Sequence record: PZ151149.1
Direction: 5' to 3' (one strand)
DNA length: 64,000 nucleotides
DNA from: a phage
A program made the position numbers and the translations under genes. The notes below the pieces were generated by a model, which had not been told where the DNA came from, did not search any database, and saw only the letters and a program-made list of their open reading frames with translations. Below, piece after piece: positions 5,326-59,280 of the stretch (positions within the stretch are counted from its first letter, which is position 1; each line of letters begins with the position of its first letter).

Positions 5326-5541
5326 TTATTTTCCTTTTCTCTGTTTACGTTTATAAAAGTAATACATTACCTCATCGCGTCCGGTGATCCAACATGCTAG
5401 GGCGGTAAACAGGTTTACAATTCCCAACACACCTACGGATGCGGCGCTGTCAACAGACATAGGAACAGTAAAGGCCATAACTAACATAGCAACGCCACAA
5501 ATGACATTAAGCACCATTATAATAAGACCGAAGAAAACCAT
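5326..5541 (-). CDS. holin-like small membrane protein (71 aa from internal ATG; long form starts 5592)
   Basis: Two hydrophobic helices followed by basic tail YKRKQRKGK; ATG at 5541 lies 3 nt after upstream stop. Confidence 0.4.
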   Translation of the reverse strand: MVFFGLIIMVLNVICGVAMLVMAFTVPMSVDSAASVGVLGIVNLFTALACWITGRDEVMYYFYKRKQRKGK

Positions 5542-5543
5542 TG

Positions 5544-5723
5544 TCAATCCTCCGACACAAGAAAACCAACAATCACGCCAGTGATAAGACATGATGCACC
5601 GCTAATAAGACAACCCGCGCCAAGTGATTCCCACCATATAAGGGAAGCGACGATAACACAGAGTCCCCAGACTACAGCAATCACAACATAGGCAATGGTC
5701 GCCCAAAACATATATTTGTTCAT
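5544..5723 (-). CDS. small membrane protein (59 aa)
   Basis: ORF; ATGA start-stop overlap with upstream gene. Confidence 0.4.
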   Translation of the reverse strand: MNKYMFWATIAYVVIAVVWGLCVIVASLIWWESLGAGCLISGASCLITGVIVGFLVSED

Positions 5724-5908
5724 AATAAATCCCATTCACCAAACAAATAAGAAAAAAGCCATATCAACAGAAACGAGGCGATTGATCCAGCAAGCAAAAT
5801 GATATTAGAGAATCCGCCGTCTATCCAGCCAATCAAACAGAATACGCCAGTATAGAAGCACAACCCCAGCACAAAGCATACTATAATCAACCATAGATAA
5901 AACGCCAT
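5720..5908 (-). CDS. small membrane protein (62 aa)
   Basis: ORF, strongly hydrophobic. Confidence 0.4.
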   Translation of the reverse strand: MAFYLWLIIVCFVLGLCFYTGVFCLIGWIDGGFSNIILLAGSIASFLLIWLFSYLFGEWDLL

Positions 5909-5969
5909 AGAAAGCCCTCCAGTTAGCTAATTTAGTGCGGGTAGTACATTCCCCTACCCGCTTTGTTAA

Positions 5970-6128
5970 TCAACGTAGAGCTTGTTCTAAAGCGATTCCA
6001 AACCATCCGCAAACAACACCCATACAGACAGCGACAAGAAGACTCATTCTCTCTTTAGGGATCATTGCAATCATAACAACAACCATACAGAAAGCCATTA
6101 CCATTGCAGTTAACATTTGTTCAATCAT
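5970..6128 (-). CDS. small membrane protein (52 aa)
   Basis: Minus-strand ORF MIEQMLTAMVMAFCMVVVMIAMIP...; below the ORF-track size cutoff; track shows only an antisense ORF here. Confidence 0.35.
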   Translation of the reverse strand: MIEQMLTAMVMAFCMVVVMIAMIPKERMSLLVAVCMGVVCGWFGIALEQALR

Positions 6129-12582: not shown

Positions 12583-13116
12583 CTAAAAATTTAAACTAGC
12601 ATAATCTCCAAAATGTTCCTTTGCTGCTTCGTCATAAGCCTTTGCAGCATCAACTTCGTCAAGAAAGACGCCCAAATGGACCTTTCTACGATTGATTGAT
12701 ATCTGAGCACACCATTTGTTATTCTGTGTTCTAATCACTCCTTTATACTTACTCTTACAACCATCAAGTTTTCCGCGATTGAATGCATTTTCCTGAGAAG
12801 TGGATTCTCTCAAGTTATCCGGTGCATTATTTTCTCGGTTTCTATCTATATGGTCGATCATTTTAACTTGCGTACCATGTTCAAGATACCAAACAACCCT
12901 ATGAACTTTAATGACCAAAGAATAGCCATCACTGCGCCAAAACTTAAAACATAGATAACCTCGACTATTTTTATAAACTTTAACCGGGTCTCCTGCCTTA
13001 TACCATCGACCATTCTTTCCACTATCTTTCAAATGGTACAATATACCATTAACGTGTTTATACTTATCTCTAATTTCTTTTTGTGTAAAATCATCCCACA
13101 TCTTAAACCCAGACAT
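12583..13116 (-). CDS. HNH homing endonuclease with C-terminal AP2 DNA-binding domain
   Basis: HNH motif IDHIDRNRENNAPDNLRESTSQENAFN; AP2-like YKGVIRTQNNKWCAQISINRRKVHLGVFLDEVDAAKAYDEAA; inserted between genes 3 and 2. Confidence 0.7.
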   Translation of the reverse strand: MSGFKMWDDFTQKEIRDKYKHVNGILYHLKDSGKNGRWYKAGDPVKVYKNSRGYLCFKFWRSDGYSLVIKVHRVVWYLEHGTQVKMIDHIDRNRENNAPDNLRESTSQENAFNRGKLDGCKSKYKGVIRTQNNKWCAQISINRRKVHLGVFLDEVDAAKAYDEAAKEHFGDYASLNF

Positions 13117-13592: not shown

Positions 13593-13622
13593 AAAAAGCC
13601 CGTCAATGACGGGCTTAATTTT
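13593..13622. terminator. bidirectional rho-independent terminator
   Basis: Hairpin AGCCCGTC-AATG-ACGGGCT flanked by A-run and T-rich run; convergent genes on both sides. Confidence 0.6.
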
Positions 13623-14649
13623 AATATGTATCAGCTAATTTAATTATGTTATCAAGTTCCGTGATTGGTAAAGTTTCTGTGTATCCATCTTTCAACATGG
13701 ATTTATCAACAACGCCACAATGATAAGTTCTCTTTATTTCCTTTTCAAGTTCCCACGGAATCCAGCCATCAACACTTTGTTTGACGTAAACAAGTTTGTG
13801 AACAAACTTAGATTTCTGCATATGTTGTTTCATTCTGGTTTCCGGTAATTCATTGGTTACACCAAACTTTATAAATTTATCATCTAACGTCTGGATATAA
13901 AAATATCCCATCTCAGATGGACGATAGCCAGAAGAACTACATTTCGGACACCCTTTAGCATTTCTGTTGAACGTACAATATCTTACAGAAAATTCGGCGT
14001 CATGTTTTGTACATTTAAGTTTTATCCATGAATTTGCAGTACCTATCCATTCACCATCGACACCTATATATTCATACCCTAACTTTTTACATTTATCTTC
14101 TATTCTAGATAGTGCATCTTCCACGGGAACGACATATTCCGTCTTAAATTGTTCAGCCGCACATTTCTTACAACCACATGTACCATGATTTTTAAAATCA
14201 AAGAACTTTGTATTCTTCCAAATATGGTCATGTTTCTTGCATCTAAGAATCATCTTAGTAATTTGTGATTTCCAGCCACCAACAAATCCCAAAAATTCAT
14301 AATCAAGATCTTTACATTTTTCTTCAATGAATTTGGTTGCTTCATCTTCTGTCATAACTCCCCTACATTGAGGGCAACCAACAATAACCTTTTTAGCATA
14401 GAAACTATTACTGGAAACATCATAGACAGTTCCATGCTTATTGCATTGGATAACAGATCTAGTCAATTTTCCTTTCCATTCTCCAGTAAATCCTAAGAAT
14501 GTATGGTCGACAAGTTTACATCTTTCAATAACTTTATCTGCAAACTCTCTAGGAGATTTTGTTACCTTGTTTACTCTGTATTCTATTTCTTCCGGTTGAC
14601 GAAGATCATAAACGTGGGGATTTCTCCCCACGGAATTAATATTAAGCAT
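13621..14649 (-). CDS. putative endonuclease-like protein: three tandem Cys-containing repeats plus C-terminal GIY-YIG-like (T5orf172-like) motif
   Basis: Three roughly 85-aa repeats each with FLGF.GEWKG...C.KH...W...GC..C pattern; C-terminal GYFYIQ...KFGVT...R..H resembles a GIY-YIG core; ATG at 14649 just after gene 2 stop. Confidence 0.5.
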   Translation of the reverse strand: MLNINSVGRNPHVYDLRQPEEIEYRVNKVTKSPREFADKVIERCKLVDHTFLGFTGEWKGKLTRSVIQCNKHGTVYDVSSNSFYAKKVIVGCPQCRGVMTEDEATKFIEEKCKDLDYEFLGFVGGWKSQITKMILRCKKHDHIWKNTKFFDFKNHGTCGCKKCAAEQFKTEYVVPVEDALSRIEDKCKKLGYEYIGVDGEWIGTANSWIKLKCTKHDAEFSVRYCTFNRNAKGCPKCSSSGYRPSEMGYFYIQTLDDKFIKFGVTNELPETRMKQHMQKSKFVHKLVYVKQSVDGWIPWELEKEIKRTYHCGVVDKSMLKDGYTETLPITELDNIIKLADTY

Positions 14650-15463
14650 CTTTCCACACCTTCCTTGCATCATAGTTTTTACCTTTAGAAACAAATTTAT
14701 ATGTGTTAAGGTAGATAATATTGCTCCAGTCTTTCGGGCTAATCTCAACAAGTTTTGTTTTAATGTGTCCCGGTAGATATGCTTTGATCATGTGGTCACT
14801 ACCACGCATACCTTTTACATCACTCCATTTAATCTTCAAGCGTGTTTTATTGCTCAAGGTAGGAGTAGATGCATATTGCTTTAAAAGTGCTTCCAGAAAC
14901 TGCTGACGGGCTTTAGGCGTTACATAGTGTAAGTTAAGACCCAGCATTACAGTATTACCCGCCTTTGTCTTAGAATCACCCAGACAAATGATCAGCGGGA
15001 AAACATCCCAATATGGCAAAGTATCTTTATACTTCGCATCATACATAAAGGTATAGATTCGCCCTACTTGCGGTTTTACAATCTGGTGTCCCTTTATTCC
15101 AGCTTTTATTGTTTTAGTAAACCACTCCTGTGATTTTTCTTTAGGACGACTCTTTGATACAGCACGCATAGACGCACGAAAATCATTAATCATCATCATT
15201 GCGCGTTGCTGCTTATTGAGACCCTTTGCACCTTTCCCTTTTAGTTTTTCAACTTCTATTGCTGTTTTAATTTCGCTGGCATAACGAGACATACTTTTAG
15301 TGAAAGTCGCATAGGCTATTCCCTTAGAATCTGCAAATGCTTTAGCTGTCATTCCTTTGGCTTTTGCTTTCGCAAATTCTACACCCAATTCGACCCACTG
15401 TTTAGACTTTCGCTTTTGGGGAGACGGCTTTTCGTCTTCTGTGATTATTTCAAATACGCTCAT
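14642..15463 (-). CDS. 2: DNA end protector protein gp2
   Basis: 273 aa from ATG at 15463 (T4 gp2 is 274 aa); basic N-terminus; position between gene 3 side and gene 4 as in T4. Confidence 0.7.
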   Translation of the reverse strand: MSVFEIITEDEKPSPQKRKSKQWVELGVEFAKAKAKGMTAKAFADSKGIAYATFTKSMSRYASEIKTAIEVEKLKGKGAKGLNKQQRAMMMINDFRASMRAVSKSRPKEKSQEWFTKTIKAGIKGHQIVKPQVGRIYTFMYDAKYKDTLPYWDVFPLIICLGDSKTKAGNTVMLGLNLHYVTPKARQQFLEALLKQYASTPTLSNKTRLKIKWSDVKGMRGSDHMIKAYLPGHIKTKLVEISPKDWSNIIYLNTYKFVSKGKNYDARKVWKDA

Positions 15464-15589: not shown

Positions 15590-16612
15590 ATGCAAGATAT
15601 TAAGAACAAAATTTTGATGCAGTTTCCGAATGCAGATATCAAGTATTTAGAAAAGTATCTAGAAATTTGTGCAAACCCAGATAAGGATGGGGAATTAGAG
15701 AGGCATCATATTCTACCAAAATCAATTTGGAAGGAATATGAAGACCTTAAAATTCATGATTTTAATGCTGTTCACTTGAACACCGTTCGTCATATGATGG
15801 CACACTACTATTTCAGTAAAGCAACAAATTCCATTTGGAAGTCTGTTGTTATGATGTTTAATACCAGAATTGATATTATGAAGGAATTGCCAGAAGATAT
15901 TGTGTTGAAACTTGCTGGTATATCAGAAGAGGCAAAGCGAAAACATGTATACACGGAAGAATCTAGACTGAAAATGTCGGAATCACAAAAACGTTTCATG
16001 GCTTCTCTTGATGAAGAAGAATTAAAACGTCGCCATAAGAAAAGAACTGATTCCGTTAAAGAACATTTTAGAAACTTGAGCGATGAAGAACGAGAAAGAA
16101 AGTATAAAGAACGTGGCAAGAAAATATCAAAGGCGTTAAGTAATAGATCAGAGGAAAAACTTAAATTACGAAGAGAAAGGCTTCTACAAACTATAAACTC
16201 AAAGTCAGACGAAGAAAAACAAAGAATCGCCAAACTACTTTCAGATTCACAAAAACCGAAAGAAACATGGGGAAAATTTGATGAGTTATATGCATTATGG
16301 ATTGATCTGAATATGCCGGGTCAATATGTATTCAAGCGCGAGGCCATTAAACGTGGATACCCAGATAGGTCATATGATTACATCGTTAAAGAAATGAAAA
16401 ATAAGTACATAAAGGAGAATGGAAACGACATAATAAAATTAAATCCCAGAAAAAATTCTGGTGTCTGGGTATATTATGACGAAATATATAAGCTGTGGAA
16501 AGAAAATGGTATGCCTAGCGATAGAAAAACAAGAAAAATAGCGGTCGAGAATGGTTATCCCGACCAATGCTATCAAACTATAGTAAAAGACTTTAAGAAC
16601 TCACTTATTTAA
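15590..16612 (+). CDS. HNH homing endonuclease with NUMOD3-like repeats
   Basis: HNH motif ERHHILPKS...N.V.L....H..H; several S/T-EE-x-[RK]-x-K-x-S repeats resembling NUMOD3; opposite strand to flanking genes 2 and 4; own sigma70-like promoter and AGGAGG RBS. Confidence 0.7.
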   Translation: MQDIKNKILMQFPNADIKYLEKYLEICANPDKDGELERHHILPKSIWKEYEDLKIHDFNAVHLNTVRHMMAHYYFSKATNSIWKSVVMMFNTRIDIMKELPEDIVLKLAGISEEAKRKHVYTEESRLKMSESQKRFMASLDEEELKRRHKKRTDSVKEHFRNLSDEERERKYKERGKKISKALSNRSEEKLKLRRERLLQTINSKSDEEKQRIAKLLSDSQKPKETWGKFDELYALWIDLNMPGQYVFKREAIKRGYPDRSYDYIVKEMKNKYIKENGNDIIKLNPRKNSGVWVYYDEIYKLWKENGMPSDRKTRKIAVENGYPDQCYQTIVKDFKNSLI

Positions 16613-35436: not shown

Positions 35437-36177
35437 ATGTTTAACAACACTCTTTTTGCTCGCCTTGAATCGCAAAAGGATTATGAGAATACACGACAAA
35501 CCGAGATTCTTAATCCTTACGTGAACTTTCACAAATATACAAATACTCAGACGTTAGCCGACGTTATGGTCGCCGAAGCTATTCAGATGCGAGGTGTAGA
35601 ATTATATTACATCCCTCGTGAATTTGTCAAACCAGACATGATCTTTGGTGAGGATGTTCAGAGCAAATTTACTAAAGCATGGAAATTTGCGGCCTATATT
35701 AATTCATTTGATGGTTATGAAGGTGTTGGTAATTTCTTCTCTAGTTTCGGTTATCAAGCCAATGATGAACTAACTTTTACGGTTAACCCCAACCTATTCA
35801 AGCATCAAGTAGATGGAAACGAGCCGAAAGCGGGTGATTTGATTTATATTCCTATGAGTAATGATTTATTTGAAATCAATTACTTAGAGCCATATCAGCC
35901 GTTTTTTCAGGCTGGCAAAAATGCCATGCGTAAAATCATTGCAGAGAAATTCGTGTATAGCGGTGAGGAATTGCGACCAGAATTACAACGCAACGAGGGA
36001 ATCAACGTTGATGAGTTCGCGGATCTGGATCTTGCACCGATCACTAATCTGGACGGGTTAACAGATATCAACTTAGATCAGTACAAAGAAGATAAGCAAT
36101 TCAGAAGCGAAGGACAAGATTTTATTGACCCGTTTGATCCTATTAATGGCAAGGGTTCACCTTTCGCCGATTTTTGA
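35437..36177 (+). CDS. 14: neck protein gp14
   Basis: Synteny, size 246 aa. Confidence 0.85.
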
Positions 36178-36203
36178 TAAATACTCATAAACAAGGGGGT
36201 CAA

Positions 36204-37037
36204 ATGTTCGGTTGGCACTATAATTCGTCAATTAGAAGGTATATTGTATTGCTGGGTAATTTATTCTCCGGCGTACAAATTAAAAGGGTGCGTAGTGACG
36301 GTGAGCGTTATATTAAAGTTCCAATTACCTACGCAAAGAAAGAAAAATTCATGATGAGTCTGGACAAATATAACAATATCTCCAGTGAGGAAGACGTAGC
36401 AAAGGTAGAAACTATTTTACCGCGCATGTGTCTTTCTTTGATTGATATGACATACGCCCAGAACTTTAAAACAAATATTGCAAATAAGACAGTACCAAAA
36501 TATACGGCTGATGGAATCAGGAGTGTGACACAATATAATCCTGTACCATATAAGTTTACTTTCGAGTTAGGGATTTATACGCGTAACGAAGATGATATGT
36601 TTCAGATAATTGAACAGATTCTTCCTTACTTCCAGCCTCATTTTAACTGTAAGATTAAAGAACTACACGGTAATGATGTATGGATTGATCGAGATATTCA
36701 GGTCACAATTAGTTCTATTACTCCAGATGAACAGGTAGGCGAAGATAAGTTTTCTCGTCGTCGTCTTGAGTGGACCATTATGTTTGAGTTCATCGGGTTT
36801 ATCTATCCTCCAGCTACCGACGTTAAGGGGGAAATTAGAACGATTTATCTTGATTTTCATGCCAATTCTCGTGAATTGAATCCTAGCGGTAATTTTGAAT
36901 CTGTGGATCACGAGGTCGTTAAACGTGACGTCGAGCAAGAAGAATGGGACGGAACTATCAAAGAATCATATTCTAGTGATATTCCAATACCAGTTGCACC
37001 GACTCCACCAGGTCCACGTATTGTAAGAGAATTTTAA
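36204..37037 (+). CDS. 15: tail sheath stabilizer gp15
   Basis: Start MFGWHYNSSIRRY matches T4 gp15 MFGYFYNSSFRRY; RBS AAGGGGG. Confidence 0.9.
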   Translation: MFGWHYNSSIRRYIVLLGNLFSGVQIKRVRSDGERYIKVPITYAKKEKFMMSLDKYNNISSEEDVAKVETILPRMCLSLIDMTYAQNFKTNIANKTVPKYTADGIRSVTQYNPVPYKFTFELGIYTRNEDDMFQIIEQILPYFQPHFNCKIKELHGNDVWIDRDIQVTISSITPDEQVGEDKFSRRRLEWTIMFEFIGFIYPPATDVKGEIRTIYLDFHANSRELNPSGNFESVDHEVVKRDVEQEEWDGTIKESYSSDIPIPVAPTPPGPRIVREF

Positions 37038-47577: not shown

Positions 47578-47842
47578 AGGTTGCAAGCCTATATTCTATT
47601 GGGAGCGAAAATAGATACACACAACAAACAATTCCACCAATTTTCGTAGTAACTGCATGGCAAAGGGACCAATGAATGAAATGAGCGTTCATGTTGATAT
47701 TGGGTCGGATAGATTTGGTAGATATACAAATCTGGTGTATGCCGACCTTGTTATGACACTCCAGCGTGACGCTAGCGGTAATTTTTGGTTTTGGTACGCT
47801 GTTCCCTGAATTAACCACAAATTCTCCATAAGGAGGAAATGC

Positions 47843-49320: not shown

Positions 49321-49907
49321 CTAAATATCTAACCAAGACAAGTCAGATCCGCCCAAGATTTTTTCGACGGCGGATCTATTTTCTTGATGATATAAGTTAA
49401 AACATGGTATCCCATGTCTACGGGCAACATAAACAGCAATTCTAGTTCCTCCCGAAACGATTCCATTAACTTCTTTCGCCCAAAATAACACACAATCTAC
49501 AGGATCATCAAGTGTCTCACCTAAGACTTGAGCAACATTTCTAGAAAACAGATTTTGCATGTATAACGGTATAGAACGAGGATTATCATAAACGTGTTCT
49601 AATTCATCCATCGCCAGATTTTTTGTTCTAAGGTTTGCCATGCAATAACATCATGACCGTTATGCTTGTGGTCATAAAACTTCCAATTTGGAATGAAAAT
49701 TTTTCTATAATCTGGATCGTAATACTTCATGAAAGCATTGTCCATACCGTAAGCCCCTCCAGAATGCGCTACAACGCGATTTTCTGACAATACCCTCCCA
49801 ATGGTACTAGCCATTATCAAAATGTCGCTAGGCGCTTTTCTAGAGCCTATTAAAGCACATCTACGAAGTGGTTTTACTCCAAATAGATCTTGTAACTGGT
49901 CAAACAT
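49321..49907 (-). CDS. DprA/Smf-like Rossmann-fold protein, split into two overlapping reading frames at an A6 run (frameshifted, possibly pseudogene)
   Basis: N half ALIGSRKAPSDI...AHSGGAYGMDNAF and C half IVSGGTRIAVYVARRHGIPCFNL together resemble one DprA/Smf-type domain; track ORFs 49599..49907 and 49321..49641 overlap around AACAAAAAATC. Confidence 0.45.
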
Positions 49908-50044
49908 AATATTTCCTCCATAGAAAGCAATATCATACTACAAGTTAATAACAAATACAAGTATCCGCGTAGCGGAAGCGAGCACAGCGAGCAATAAAAC
50001 ACTTCCAGTAATTGATTAATAAATGTTCGAAACAAATTTTTATT

Positions 50045-50100
50045 ATTCTATAAGATAAGTCTTCGTTTTGATCATAATTTAATCATACATGTAAAAACTA
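50045..50100. repeat. intergenic repeat copy C (core CTTCGTTTTGATCATAATTTAATCA)
   Basis: 25-nt core identical to 50210..50234; 149 bp spacing. Confidence 0.6.
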
Positions 50101-50185
50101 CACAAAAGGATATCGCTTCGCGAACTCCTACGGAGTATAACATTTGTGTTACAATATGTAGTGAGTAATAATTAACCAAAGATAC

Positions 50186-50245
50186 ATTTTCTATGTTCTA
50201 AAGATCTTTCTTCGTTTTGATCATAATTTAATCAAACAGTATTAA
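50186..50245. repeat. intergenic repeat copy B (ATTTTCTATGTTCTAAAGATCTTTCTTCGTTTTGATCATAATTTAATCA)
   Basis: Combines the copy A segment and the copy C core. Confidence 0.6.
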
Positions 50246-50286
50246 TATTGTGCACATGTAAACTAAAATTATGTTAATAACATATA

Positions 50287-50313
50287 CAAAAAAGCCGCCC
50301 AGAAGGACGGCTA
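50287..50313 (-). terminator. rho-independent terminator after 50321..50758
   Basis: Hairpin AGCCGTCC-TTCT-GGGCGGCT then TTTTTT on minus strand. Confidence 0.6.
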
Positions 50314-50320
50314 ATGTTAA

Positions 50321-57422: not shown

Positions 57423-58193
57423 ATGAATATTATCCGAATAAAACTACCGGAAGGTGTGCAGAGATTTAAACCATTCACGGTAAAAGATTATAGAGATTTC
57501 CTTCTGGTGTCAACTGAAATTAAGATGAATCCAGAAGAAGAACAAACGATTCTGGATGAGCTATTAGAAGAAATATATCCAGACGTAGATCCGGCATTTC
57601 GTGAATATATTTTCCTGAATGTCTTTACTAGTTCAATTGGTAAAACTAAGATACCGCTTTGTTTTACTTGCCCGACTTGCAACAAAGAAAGAAAAATGTT
57701 GCTTAACTTACAGGTTGAAGCACTAAAACCAATCGTTCTAGAGGCCGCAGGGCTTAAAATAACTTTCCGGTATGTTAAACCATCAACCGACTATGCAAAA
57801 ACGTTTCTGGATGCGATAGAGCGTGTATCTGATGGTGTTAATGATTATCTATGGACTGAATTACCGGAAGAAGTTAGAGAACAGGTTATAGATTCAATCT
57901 CATTTGCTGAATTTGAAGAAGTTGTTAAGCAGATGCACACAATCAAGATCGAACAAAAGATATCTTGTTGTGAAAGTCATGACCTGAAATACATAGGTCT
58001 TCTTCCATTATTCAAATTGTTGTTGAATCCAGATGAGTTATTCATCTTTTATCGAATAAACCATCTATTGGCAAAATCAAATTATTCTATCAGTGATCTT
58101 ATGGACATGTTACCCGTCGAGAGAAACATTGCACTGACACTGGTCGAGAAAGACGTAAAAGAGGCAAACAATGCAAAGAACGGGGTTTCCTAA
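57423..58193 (+). CDS. 51: baseplate hub assembly protein gp51
   Basis: Synteny, size 256 aa, late promoter upstream. Confidence 0.8.
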   Translation: MNIIRIKLPEGVQRFKPFTVKDYRDFLLVSTEIKMNPEEEQTILDELLEEIYPDVDPAFREYIFLNVFTSSIGKTKIPLCFTCPTCNKERKMLLNLQVEALKPIVLEAAGLKITFRYVKPSTDYAKTFLDAIERVSDGVNDYLWTELPEEVREQVIDSISFAEFEEVVKQMHTIKIEQKISCCESHDLKYIGLLPLFKLLLNPDELFIFYRINHLLAKSNYSISDLMDMLPVERNIALTLVEKDVKEANNAKNGVS

Positions 58194-59280
58194 TGTCTCA
58201 ATAAAACTTTATCAGGATTATGAGGCATTTCTAAATCATCGCTTTATAGAATTGGGTGCTACCTTTGTTACAATGACTCTGCGTGATTCGATTCGTGGGG
58301 TGAACGAAGGATTGTTGCAATTCTATGATAATAAGGCGATGCATACAAAATTAAATGGACGAGAGATCATTCAGATTTCGCTATCCACTGCTAATACAGA
58401 TGAAGTGTTTAACCGAATCTATGGGATCTCTCATAGTAATGTAACGATTGACCAAAAATCTGACAACATTTTAACATTCCAGTTAAAGAGCTATCACGAA
58501 ACACTAAACCTTAAATTTTCTCGCTCATTAACAAATAACGCTGTTAATAACGTAACTAGCATGATCGATGCCATCTATAAGGAAGTTCCTTTATGGAAAC
58601 CTACTATAAAGGGTGATAACGTTGTTATTCCTCGTTGTCCGTGGGTTAGTACCATAAATGACTATATGGATTTTGTTAGGGCATACGGGCAAAGCGTAGA
58701 AACCGAGTCTTTCGTGTATTGCTGGGAAGATTTTGATGGTATAACGATCGCTGGACACGATACAATATTAAAAAATGAGCCAATACCAGCTATAATCTGT
58801 GAGCCTAGACTCATGGGGCAATTTATTGATATGTCGCCTAATCTGATGGTTTTTAATTTCGAGTGGCAGACTAAGAGCAATGCTAAAGTTAAAAATTCAT
58901 TTAGCAATGTGACATACACAACTATTGATTTTGTTACTAAGCAGTATAATAAAATTGTTGTTGGTAATGGGGATAATATTGCACACTTTGCTCATGGTGG
59001 CGCTTATGGTAATTTAACTTATAAGAATGCGTTTTTGGAAGGTTCTAAACTTGCCACAATAGAACAATATGATTCATATGCTACCGCAGTGTGTCACGGT
59101 AATTTTTCGTTGCGACCCGGTATTGTTATTCGATTCTTTGATGAGAAGCAACAAGCACGCAATGATTTTATTGTTGACGAAGTGGTGCATGAAATTAGCC
59201 GAGAGCAATCATTAACTCACCTGTATATGATCGGTAACAGCGAAGAATTACAGGAAGTCAAATTTGAAGGTAAGATATAA
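58171..59280 (+). CDS. 27: baseplate hub protein gp27
   Basis: Synteny, size 369 aa. Confidence 0.85.
   Translation: MQRTGFPNVSIKLYQDYEAFLNHRFIELGATFVTMTLRDSIRGVNEGLLQFYDNKAMHTKLNGREIIQISLSTANTDEVFNRIYGISHSNVTIDQKSDNILTFQLKSYHETLNLKFSRSLTNNAVNNVTSMIDAIYKEVPLWKPTIKGDNVVIPRCPWVSTINDYMDFVRAYGQSVETESFVYCWEDFDGITIAGHDTILKNEPIPAIICEPRLMGQFIDMSPNLMVFNFEWQTKSNAKVKNSFSNVTYTTIDFVTKQYNKIVVGNGDNIAHFAHGGAYGNLTYKNAFLEGSKLATIEQYDSYATAVCHGNFSLRPGIVIRFFDEKQQARNDFIVDEVVHEISREQSLTHLYMIGNSEELQEVKFEGKI

Follow-up and report, generated by a model that had tools for sequence, protein, structure and literature searches.

The DprA-like locus and its setting

The window, a 64-kb (64,000-nucleotide) stretch of phage DNA (sequence record PZ151149.1), derives from a Krischvirus, as revealed by megablast of the whole stretch, and belongs with the T4-type coliphages RB49, Phi1, JSE and GEC-3S. 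The closest GenBank records share ~97.8% identity with it over 24 kb, and no identical record was found. On its minus strand, the window contains two open reading frames, ORF1 and ORF2, which overlap by 43 nt around a run of six As (Table 1). ORF1 follows the native protein up to residue 96, then continues with six out-of-frame residues (IWRWMN) and ends at a premature TAG (49601..49599). From Asn8 (49620..49618) onward, ORF2 corresponds to native residues 97–195 and carries the invariant GGTRIAV and IPCFN motifs. The original prediction held that the two ORFs are halves of one gene, and that a one-base change in the A-run would fuse them into a protein of about 190 aa. Both points agree with what we find: one additional A turns ORF1 and ORF2 into a single frame of 195 aa, the relatives have seven As where the window has six, and the two ORFs match consecutive segments of one protein family profile (PHROG 768), which is encoded by a single 588-nt CDS in the relatives.

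The gene is arranged tail-to-tail with gene 24 (capsid vertex), and a 145-aa ORF, gene 24.3, a 65-aa ORF and hoc lie upstream of it. The same set of neighbours is present in JSE, Phi1 and E26. As had been proposed, the gene takes the slot of rnlB in T4, the first position beyond gene 24, with opposite orientation and ahead of 24.3 and hoc. The record of phage Skers labels it “putative RNA ligase”, a positional mislabel that arises from the location of rnlB in T4; the protein has no ligase match, and an RNA ligase identity is rejected. The intergenic region upstream of the gene is modular, with two terminator-like hairpins and a direct repeat in two copies. The 25-nt core of this repeat has no further copy within the window, and an Rfam scan of the whole window gave no match. 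The region may be an instance of the repeated regulatory cassettes that are known from phages of the RB49 type.

Table 1. Coordinates of the features of the DprA-like locus, and of mobile-element-like ORFs elsewhere in the window.
Feature	Position	Strand	Length	Remarks
ORF1	49599..49907	−	102 aa	residues 1–96 native; GSR and SGGAxGMD motifs
ORF2	49321..49641	−	106 aa	−1 frame, open
Overlap motif AACAAAAAATC	49627..49617	−
A6 homopolymer (T6 on the plus strand)	49619..49624	−		site of the 1-nt deletion; A7 or AAAAGAA in relatives
Shine-Dalgarno sequence GGAGG	49915..49919	−		7 nt 5′ of the gene ATG (49907..49905)
ORF2-frame ATG (Met11 of ORF2)	49611..49609	−		starts 10 nt 5′ of the ORF1 stop codon
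Upstream intergenic region	49908..50320	−	413 nt	modular
Terminator-like hairpins	50293–50312, 49964–49976			GTTAATAACAnATACAA (plus-strand orientation) after each
Direct repeat, two copies	50052–50089, 50201–50238		38 nt	copies 149 nt apart
ORF of HNH/AP2-like appearance (by eye)	12583..13116	−	177 aa	in the window, not in JSE
ORF in place of JSE endonuclease EpJSE_00134	13621..14751	−	376 aa
ORF with HNH-like motif (by eye)	15590..16612	+	340 aa	between genes 2 and 4

To type the run in relatives, an 80-nt query centred on it was matched to 59 GenBank Krischvirus records, and the matched span was read in each. The query spans 81 nt in 55 records, and 78 nt of it match 79 nt of the record in three more. 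These 58 records contain the intact 588-nt CDS with A7 or AAAAGAA at the run; E26, FL38, JSE, Phi1 and G2248, in which it encodes 195 aa, are examples. The codons at the run are CAA AAA AAT (A7) or CAA AAG AAT: most relatives have the slippery CAA AAA AAT, and the synonymous AAG interrupts the run in FL38, G2248 and the locus L017. The only 80-nt match is that of phage Whisky (MZ504878.1), which carries the A6 allele. Its annotation gives a 309-nt CDS only (HFGIMCCB_00163), the 102-aa product of which (QZI94012.1) is identical to ORF1. Whisky thus shares with the window the A6 frameshift, the 102-aa product and the Leu141 haplotype, but six synonymous substitutions in the gene and a divergence of 1.1% over 3 kb make it a different phage. 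Gene calls on six further SRA (Logan) contigs, each from a different run (SRR12268564, SRR31707705, SRR25936285, SRR33880973, ERR956666 and SRR24962600), give exactly this 102-aa product; the downstream ORF is the 106-aa form on five of them and a 96-aa version on the sixth (L015), on which the gene caller chose the Met11 start. An exact scan of IMG/VR for the A6 context gave no match, and a scan with the flank pattern returned two contigs only, one A7 and one AAAAGAA. The JGI metagenome scan returned a single contig, with A7. With so few matches, these scans say little about the frequency of A6. A 141-aa entry of phage JEP8 was considered as a second type of inactivation and rejected; it reflects the choice of start in the annotation, and the gene is intact.

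The intact protein and the truncated product

ORF1 fits the PHROG 768 profile at positions 4–88 (E=1e-22), ORF2 at positions 89–181 (E=2e-32), and the fused translation at positions 4–181 of 191 (E=2e-60). These fits, together with the single 588-nt CDS of the relatives, indicate that the pair of ORFs did not arise by chance. By its full-length profile match and its synteny beside gene 24, the gene is a member of PHROG 768 and of the Krischvirus ORF164 orthologues; the RefSeq name of the intact gene is “DprA-like DNA recombination-mediator protein”. In Pfam, the only match of the protein is DNA_processg_A (PF02481; positions 45–90 of 212), with 22.3 bits compared with a gathering cutoff of 29.6, and at this threshold the protein is not assigned to DprA/Smf. 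A phmmer search against DprA of the PDB gave E=0.7.

The structural comparison was made with an AlphaFold2 model of an intact homologue (P0003, 93% identical; pLDDT 84, pTM 0.84), which has an alternating β/α, Rossmann-like layout. The top 11 Foldseek matches of this model in the PDB are DprA chains (E=2e-6 to 6e-4, TM ~0.5), led by Helicobacter pylori DprA (E=2e-6, TM 0.54), followed by the Rhodopseudomonas palustris and Streptococcus pneumoniae proteins. ShosA, LOG and Moco-carrier proteins, all of the SLOG superfamily, come next (all E≤1e-2). The likeness to the DprA, LOG, Moco-carrier and ShosA clades places the protein in the SLOG superfamily, and the DprA/Smf-like Rossmann domain predicted from the first reading is supported. 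The phage protein shares with bacterial DprA/Smf (PF02481; 4LJK, 5MLL, 3UQZ, 3MAJ) the Rossmann-like fold and the GSR ... SGGAxG(I/M)D motifs. In contrast to canonical DprA, it is a single 195-aa domain without the SAM or C-terminal winged-helix (DML1) domain, and the identity is 16–20%. Because the Pfam match is below threshold and the additional domains are absent, we classify it as a stand-alone SLOG domain of the DprA clade rather than a bona fide DprA.

A word-indexed search returned six close relatives, including a Morganella phage protein of the same name. In a profile search of 1.84 billion representatives, 4341 proteins were found at E≤1e-3; most of the best 150 of these are 175–195 aa long and match across both halves, which confirms that the natural unit is one domain. 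The alternative that ORF1 and ORF2 are two independently conserved small genes is rejected on the same grounds and by the one CDS of the relatives.

Fusions are present among some of the distant homologues (P0031, P0067, P0143, P0164). They comprise N-terminal NADAR domains joined to the SLOG domain in proteins of 320–335 aa, a 728-aa protein in which RecJ (DHH-DHHA1-RecJ_OB) is fused to SLOG, and a homologue of 1475 aa in which the DprA-like domain is combined with YAcAr, LDcluster4 and NADAR domains. Viral stand-alone SLOG domains are predicted to sense or process ADP-ribose-derived immune signals, and most of them are assigned to the YpsA-like clade (Iyer et al., 2022; PMC9503650). The protein described here resembles them in being a stand-alone phage SLOG domain with NADAR-fused distant homologues, whereas it is nearest to the DprA clade. 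Fusion to RecJ and resemblance to DprA point to ssDNA instead of ADP-ribose signals. The intact protein probably binds ssDNA or a nucleotide or ADP-ribose-derived ligand, and would act in recombination and repair or in counter-defence. Our literature search found no experimental work on the DprA-like protein of RB49-type phages.

In the AlphaFold model, the frameshift lies at the 96/97 boundary, between a low-confidence region and the helix formed by residues 96–106. The 102-aa product lacks strands β4 (residues 139–143) and β5 (residues 169–171) and the helix of residues 155–164, and with them the invariant motifs G153-G154-T155-R156-I157-A158-V159 and I167-P168-C169...N171. A loss of function is expected, since the truncated product is unable to complete the sheet. 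Judged from the model and from conservation, A6 very probably abolishes or strongly reduces the function of the gene.

Occurrence and authenticity of the A6 allele

A sequencing or assembly artefact would mean that the phage truly has A7 and that one A was lost in base-calling or in the consensus. Indel errors typically occur at homopolymers, only one of the GenBank relatives is out of frame, the repaired protein matches a common intact protein exactly, and a probable error of this type exists in a public record, the JSE RefSeq entry, in which the gp27-like baseplate hub gene is split at an A6 run. In opposition to these points, A6 is also found in seven other independent assemblies, including that of the window's closest local relative, which renders a one-off miscall unlikely. 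Errors should strike coding and non-coding sequence alike, yet in those contigs every other coding homopolymer has a constant length. This comparison covers 20.6 kb and 22 runs (A/T of at least 6, G/C of at least 5) in JSE and six A6-carrying loci: the run of the DprA-like gene is the only coding run with length variation, and the two other runs that vary, in one contig, are both intergenic. The confinement of the variation among coding runs to this gene suggests real mutations that are filtered by selection, not a coding-blind error. No other sizeable gene of the window is broken relative to JSE; in the whole 64 kb compared with JSE, no uncompensated frame-breaking indel is present in another sizeable gene, and the other 1-nt indels are intergenic, compensated within a few bases, or located at the extreme 3′ end of small ORFs. 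This check of all 1-nt indels leads us to reject a generally error-prone window assembly. A sequencing error in the window's A6 is unlikely, and we give the artefact explanation as a whole little credence.

The comparison with JSE revealed further differences. The gp27-like baseplate hub ORF is intact in the window (58171..59280, plus strand; 369 aa), with A5 at ~58891. In the JSE RefSeq record, A6 at this site is accompanied by two overlapping “baseplate hub” CDSs (EpJSE_00183/00184), and the Logan contigs have 369 aa; the gene is essential, and the JSE split is probably a homopolymer error or a frameshift in the record. A T5/T4 polymorphism (47782..47786) alters the C-terminus of a ~50-aa hypothetical ORF, the homologue of EpJSE_00166 (47657..47809, plus strand), which sits between genes 23 and 24. 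The window has T5, as do Phi1, FL38, ECD7-like phages and several SRA contigs, and JSE, Whisky and L017 have T4; since both states are common, this ORF is possibly not a genuine gene, or not one under constraint. Presence/absence differences are observed at mobile-element-like ORFs (Table 1; domain calls by eye). The window lacks the homing endonuclease EpJSE_00154 of JSE and the segment in which JSE encodes EpJSE_00105 (JSE 5476–6121 and 36019–36823), and gene 2 is only 82.6% identical between the window and JSE.

Eight different SNP haplotypes carry the A6 allele, one each in the window, in Whisky and in the six SRA contigs. The A6 allele of one contig, L014 (ERR956666), equals the JSE gene minus one A and is otherwise identical; L014 is also the nearest local relative of the window, at 0.4% divergence. 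Over 3.4 kb, the A6 carriers differ pairwise by 0.4–2.1%, as much as any two of the compared phages, and a local neighbour-joining tree of the same region intersperses A6 and A7 carriers. A6 is polyphyletic in the local tree, and independent length changes that recur among close relatives are a trait which the run shares with contingency loci. A single old A6 allele could, less probably, have been spread by the recombination that is so frequent in T4-type phages, in place of recurrent mutation.

Purifying selection on the gene is strong in each of its halves (pN/pS ~0.05). None of the A6 alleles compared has a second lesion, and that of the window has no amino-acid change relative to a common intact protein. 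The repaired translation is 100% identical to this intact protein, present on 67 contigs, and identical to that of vB_EcoM_011D4 and others, which indicates that the gene has not decayed since the frameshift. Two A6 carriers, L011 (SRR31707705) and L015 (SRR24962600), have private non-synonymous changes 3′ of the frameshift, L98M and G149R; in this half, the sampled A7 alleles have only the shared L/I141 polymorphism. In so small a sample, the two changes are a weak hint of relaxed constraint or first decay. The A6 pattern is recurrent, young and rare, as mutation-selection balance at a slippage hot spot predicts.

Origin and meaning of the split gene

The full-length protein could be made from the A6 allele if the run were a site of programmed recoding, by −1 ribosomal frameshifting or by transcriptional slippage. 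A −1 slip of P-site tRNA-Lys from AAA to the overlapping AAA would indeed restore the exact native ...EQKNLAMDE... sequence. The properties of the locus do not agree with such a program. The two-frame arrangement is not conserved, as the GenBank relatives other than Whisky have one in-frame CDS. The zero frame reads CAA AAA ATC and offers no X_XXY_YYZ heptamer, and no SD-like (GGAGG-like) stimulator is located upstream. The 74 nt downstream of the run are no better folded than shuffled sequences (MFE −8.3 kcal/mol compared with a shuffle mean of −10.4; z=+0.91). Efficient slippage of E. coli RNA polymerase would need more than six As. Programmed frameshifting is rejected for the lack of a heptamer, of a stimulatory structure and of conservation, and programmed recoding in either form is extremely improbable. 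At most, traces of full-length protein would arise from A6, through tRNA-Lys slipping by −1 on A_AAA_A or through stuttering of RNA polymerase. Among the three options originally offered for the split, without a preference, a real and recent inactivating allele is the one we favour; slippage-dependent expression is disfavoured, and a one-off sequencing error is unlikely, given the seven other assemblies.

The A6 state may also be functional, either as the OFF state of a phase-variation-like A tract, selected on some hosts, or as a source of two halves that are both made and reassemble. The occurrence of A6 on many backgrounds is consistent with this proposal, as is the retention of the slippery CAA AAA AAT in most relatives, despite the synonymous AAG option. 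The break occurs in a low-confidence loop region (pLDDT 62–72 for residues 71–90), and the ATG near the ORF1 stop would allow ORF2 to be made by reinitiation; Met11 is conceivable as the sole plausible termination-reinitiation start, for a C-terminal fragment of 96 aa. For a switch, the NADAR fusions of distant homologues and the predicted role of viral SLOG domains in counter-defence (PMC9503650) are also relevant, in that the dispensability of a counter-defence gene would vary with the host.

Other observations weigh against both forms of the proposal. At a contingency locus, the tract usually has at least 8–9 units and both states are common in populations; here, the ON state has 7 As, which is short, and the OFF state is rare: it is on 7 contigs, compared with 360 or more that carry the listed intact forms, and in a single one of the 59 GenBank records. 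More distant homologues do not conserve the run, and L98M and G149R in two A6 carriers hint at relaxed constraint, not at continued function. For the split protein in particular, a direct reading of the sequence revealed no Shine-Dalgarno sequence ahead of either ORF2 ATG. A functional A6 state is rather unlikely on balance. The bolder form, in which the A7 tract would be a low-frequency switch that repeatedly silences, within Krischvirus populations, a SLOG protein of counter-defence or DNA metabolism, or in which the halves would reassemble into an active split enzyme, is still less probable. If the switch were true, OFF would be favoured on hosts whose defence senses the protein, or against which the protein is useless.

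We consider it likely that the split reflects a real and recent loss of one A (A7 to A6) by recurrent slippage in a non-essential accessory gene of Krischvirus, and that the loss is inactivating. Strand slippage during replication of the phage DNA would most likely be the event that drops one A from A7. Translation of the A6 allele would then stop after residue 96 and six foreign residues. The same mutation would arise repeatedly in the phage group while remaining rare and young. A hot spot in a gene that is under purifying selection in nature and dispensable in the short term would yield a rare, young and repeated allele.

The gene, its family label and the exact truncated allele, that of Whisky, are already in public databases. 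For annotation, the locus should be entered as a single (pseudo)gene with a frameshift, assigned to the family DprA-like/PHROG 768, rather than as two hypothetical proteins. If the allele is recurrent as we propose, its appearance in independent phages marks the A7 run as a natural mutational hot spot and shows that, over short times at least, the phages can do without the DprA-like gene. The window phage or Whisky would provide a natural knockout with which the stand-alone DprA-like SLOG protein of RB49-type phages can be probed.

RB49 ORF164, Phi1 ORF164 and JSE EpJSE_00169 are the same gene at the same locus, with ~99% nucleotide identity. The window differs from them by the absence of one A of the A7 run, which leaves the 102-aa and 106-aa ORFs. 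Runs of A are classical frameshift hot spots in the replication of T4, where Streisinger-type slippage affects rII and the lysozyme gene e. The present allele resembles the T4 A-run hot spots in that 1 nt is lost from an A-run of a T4-type phage, independently and recurrently. In contrast to the T4 hot spots, which come from laboratory mutant hunts, the run in the DprA-like gene varies naturally among isolates and metagenomes.
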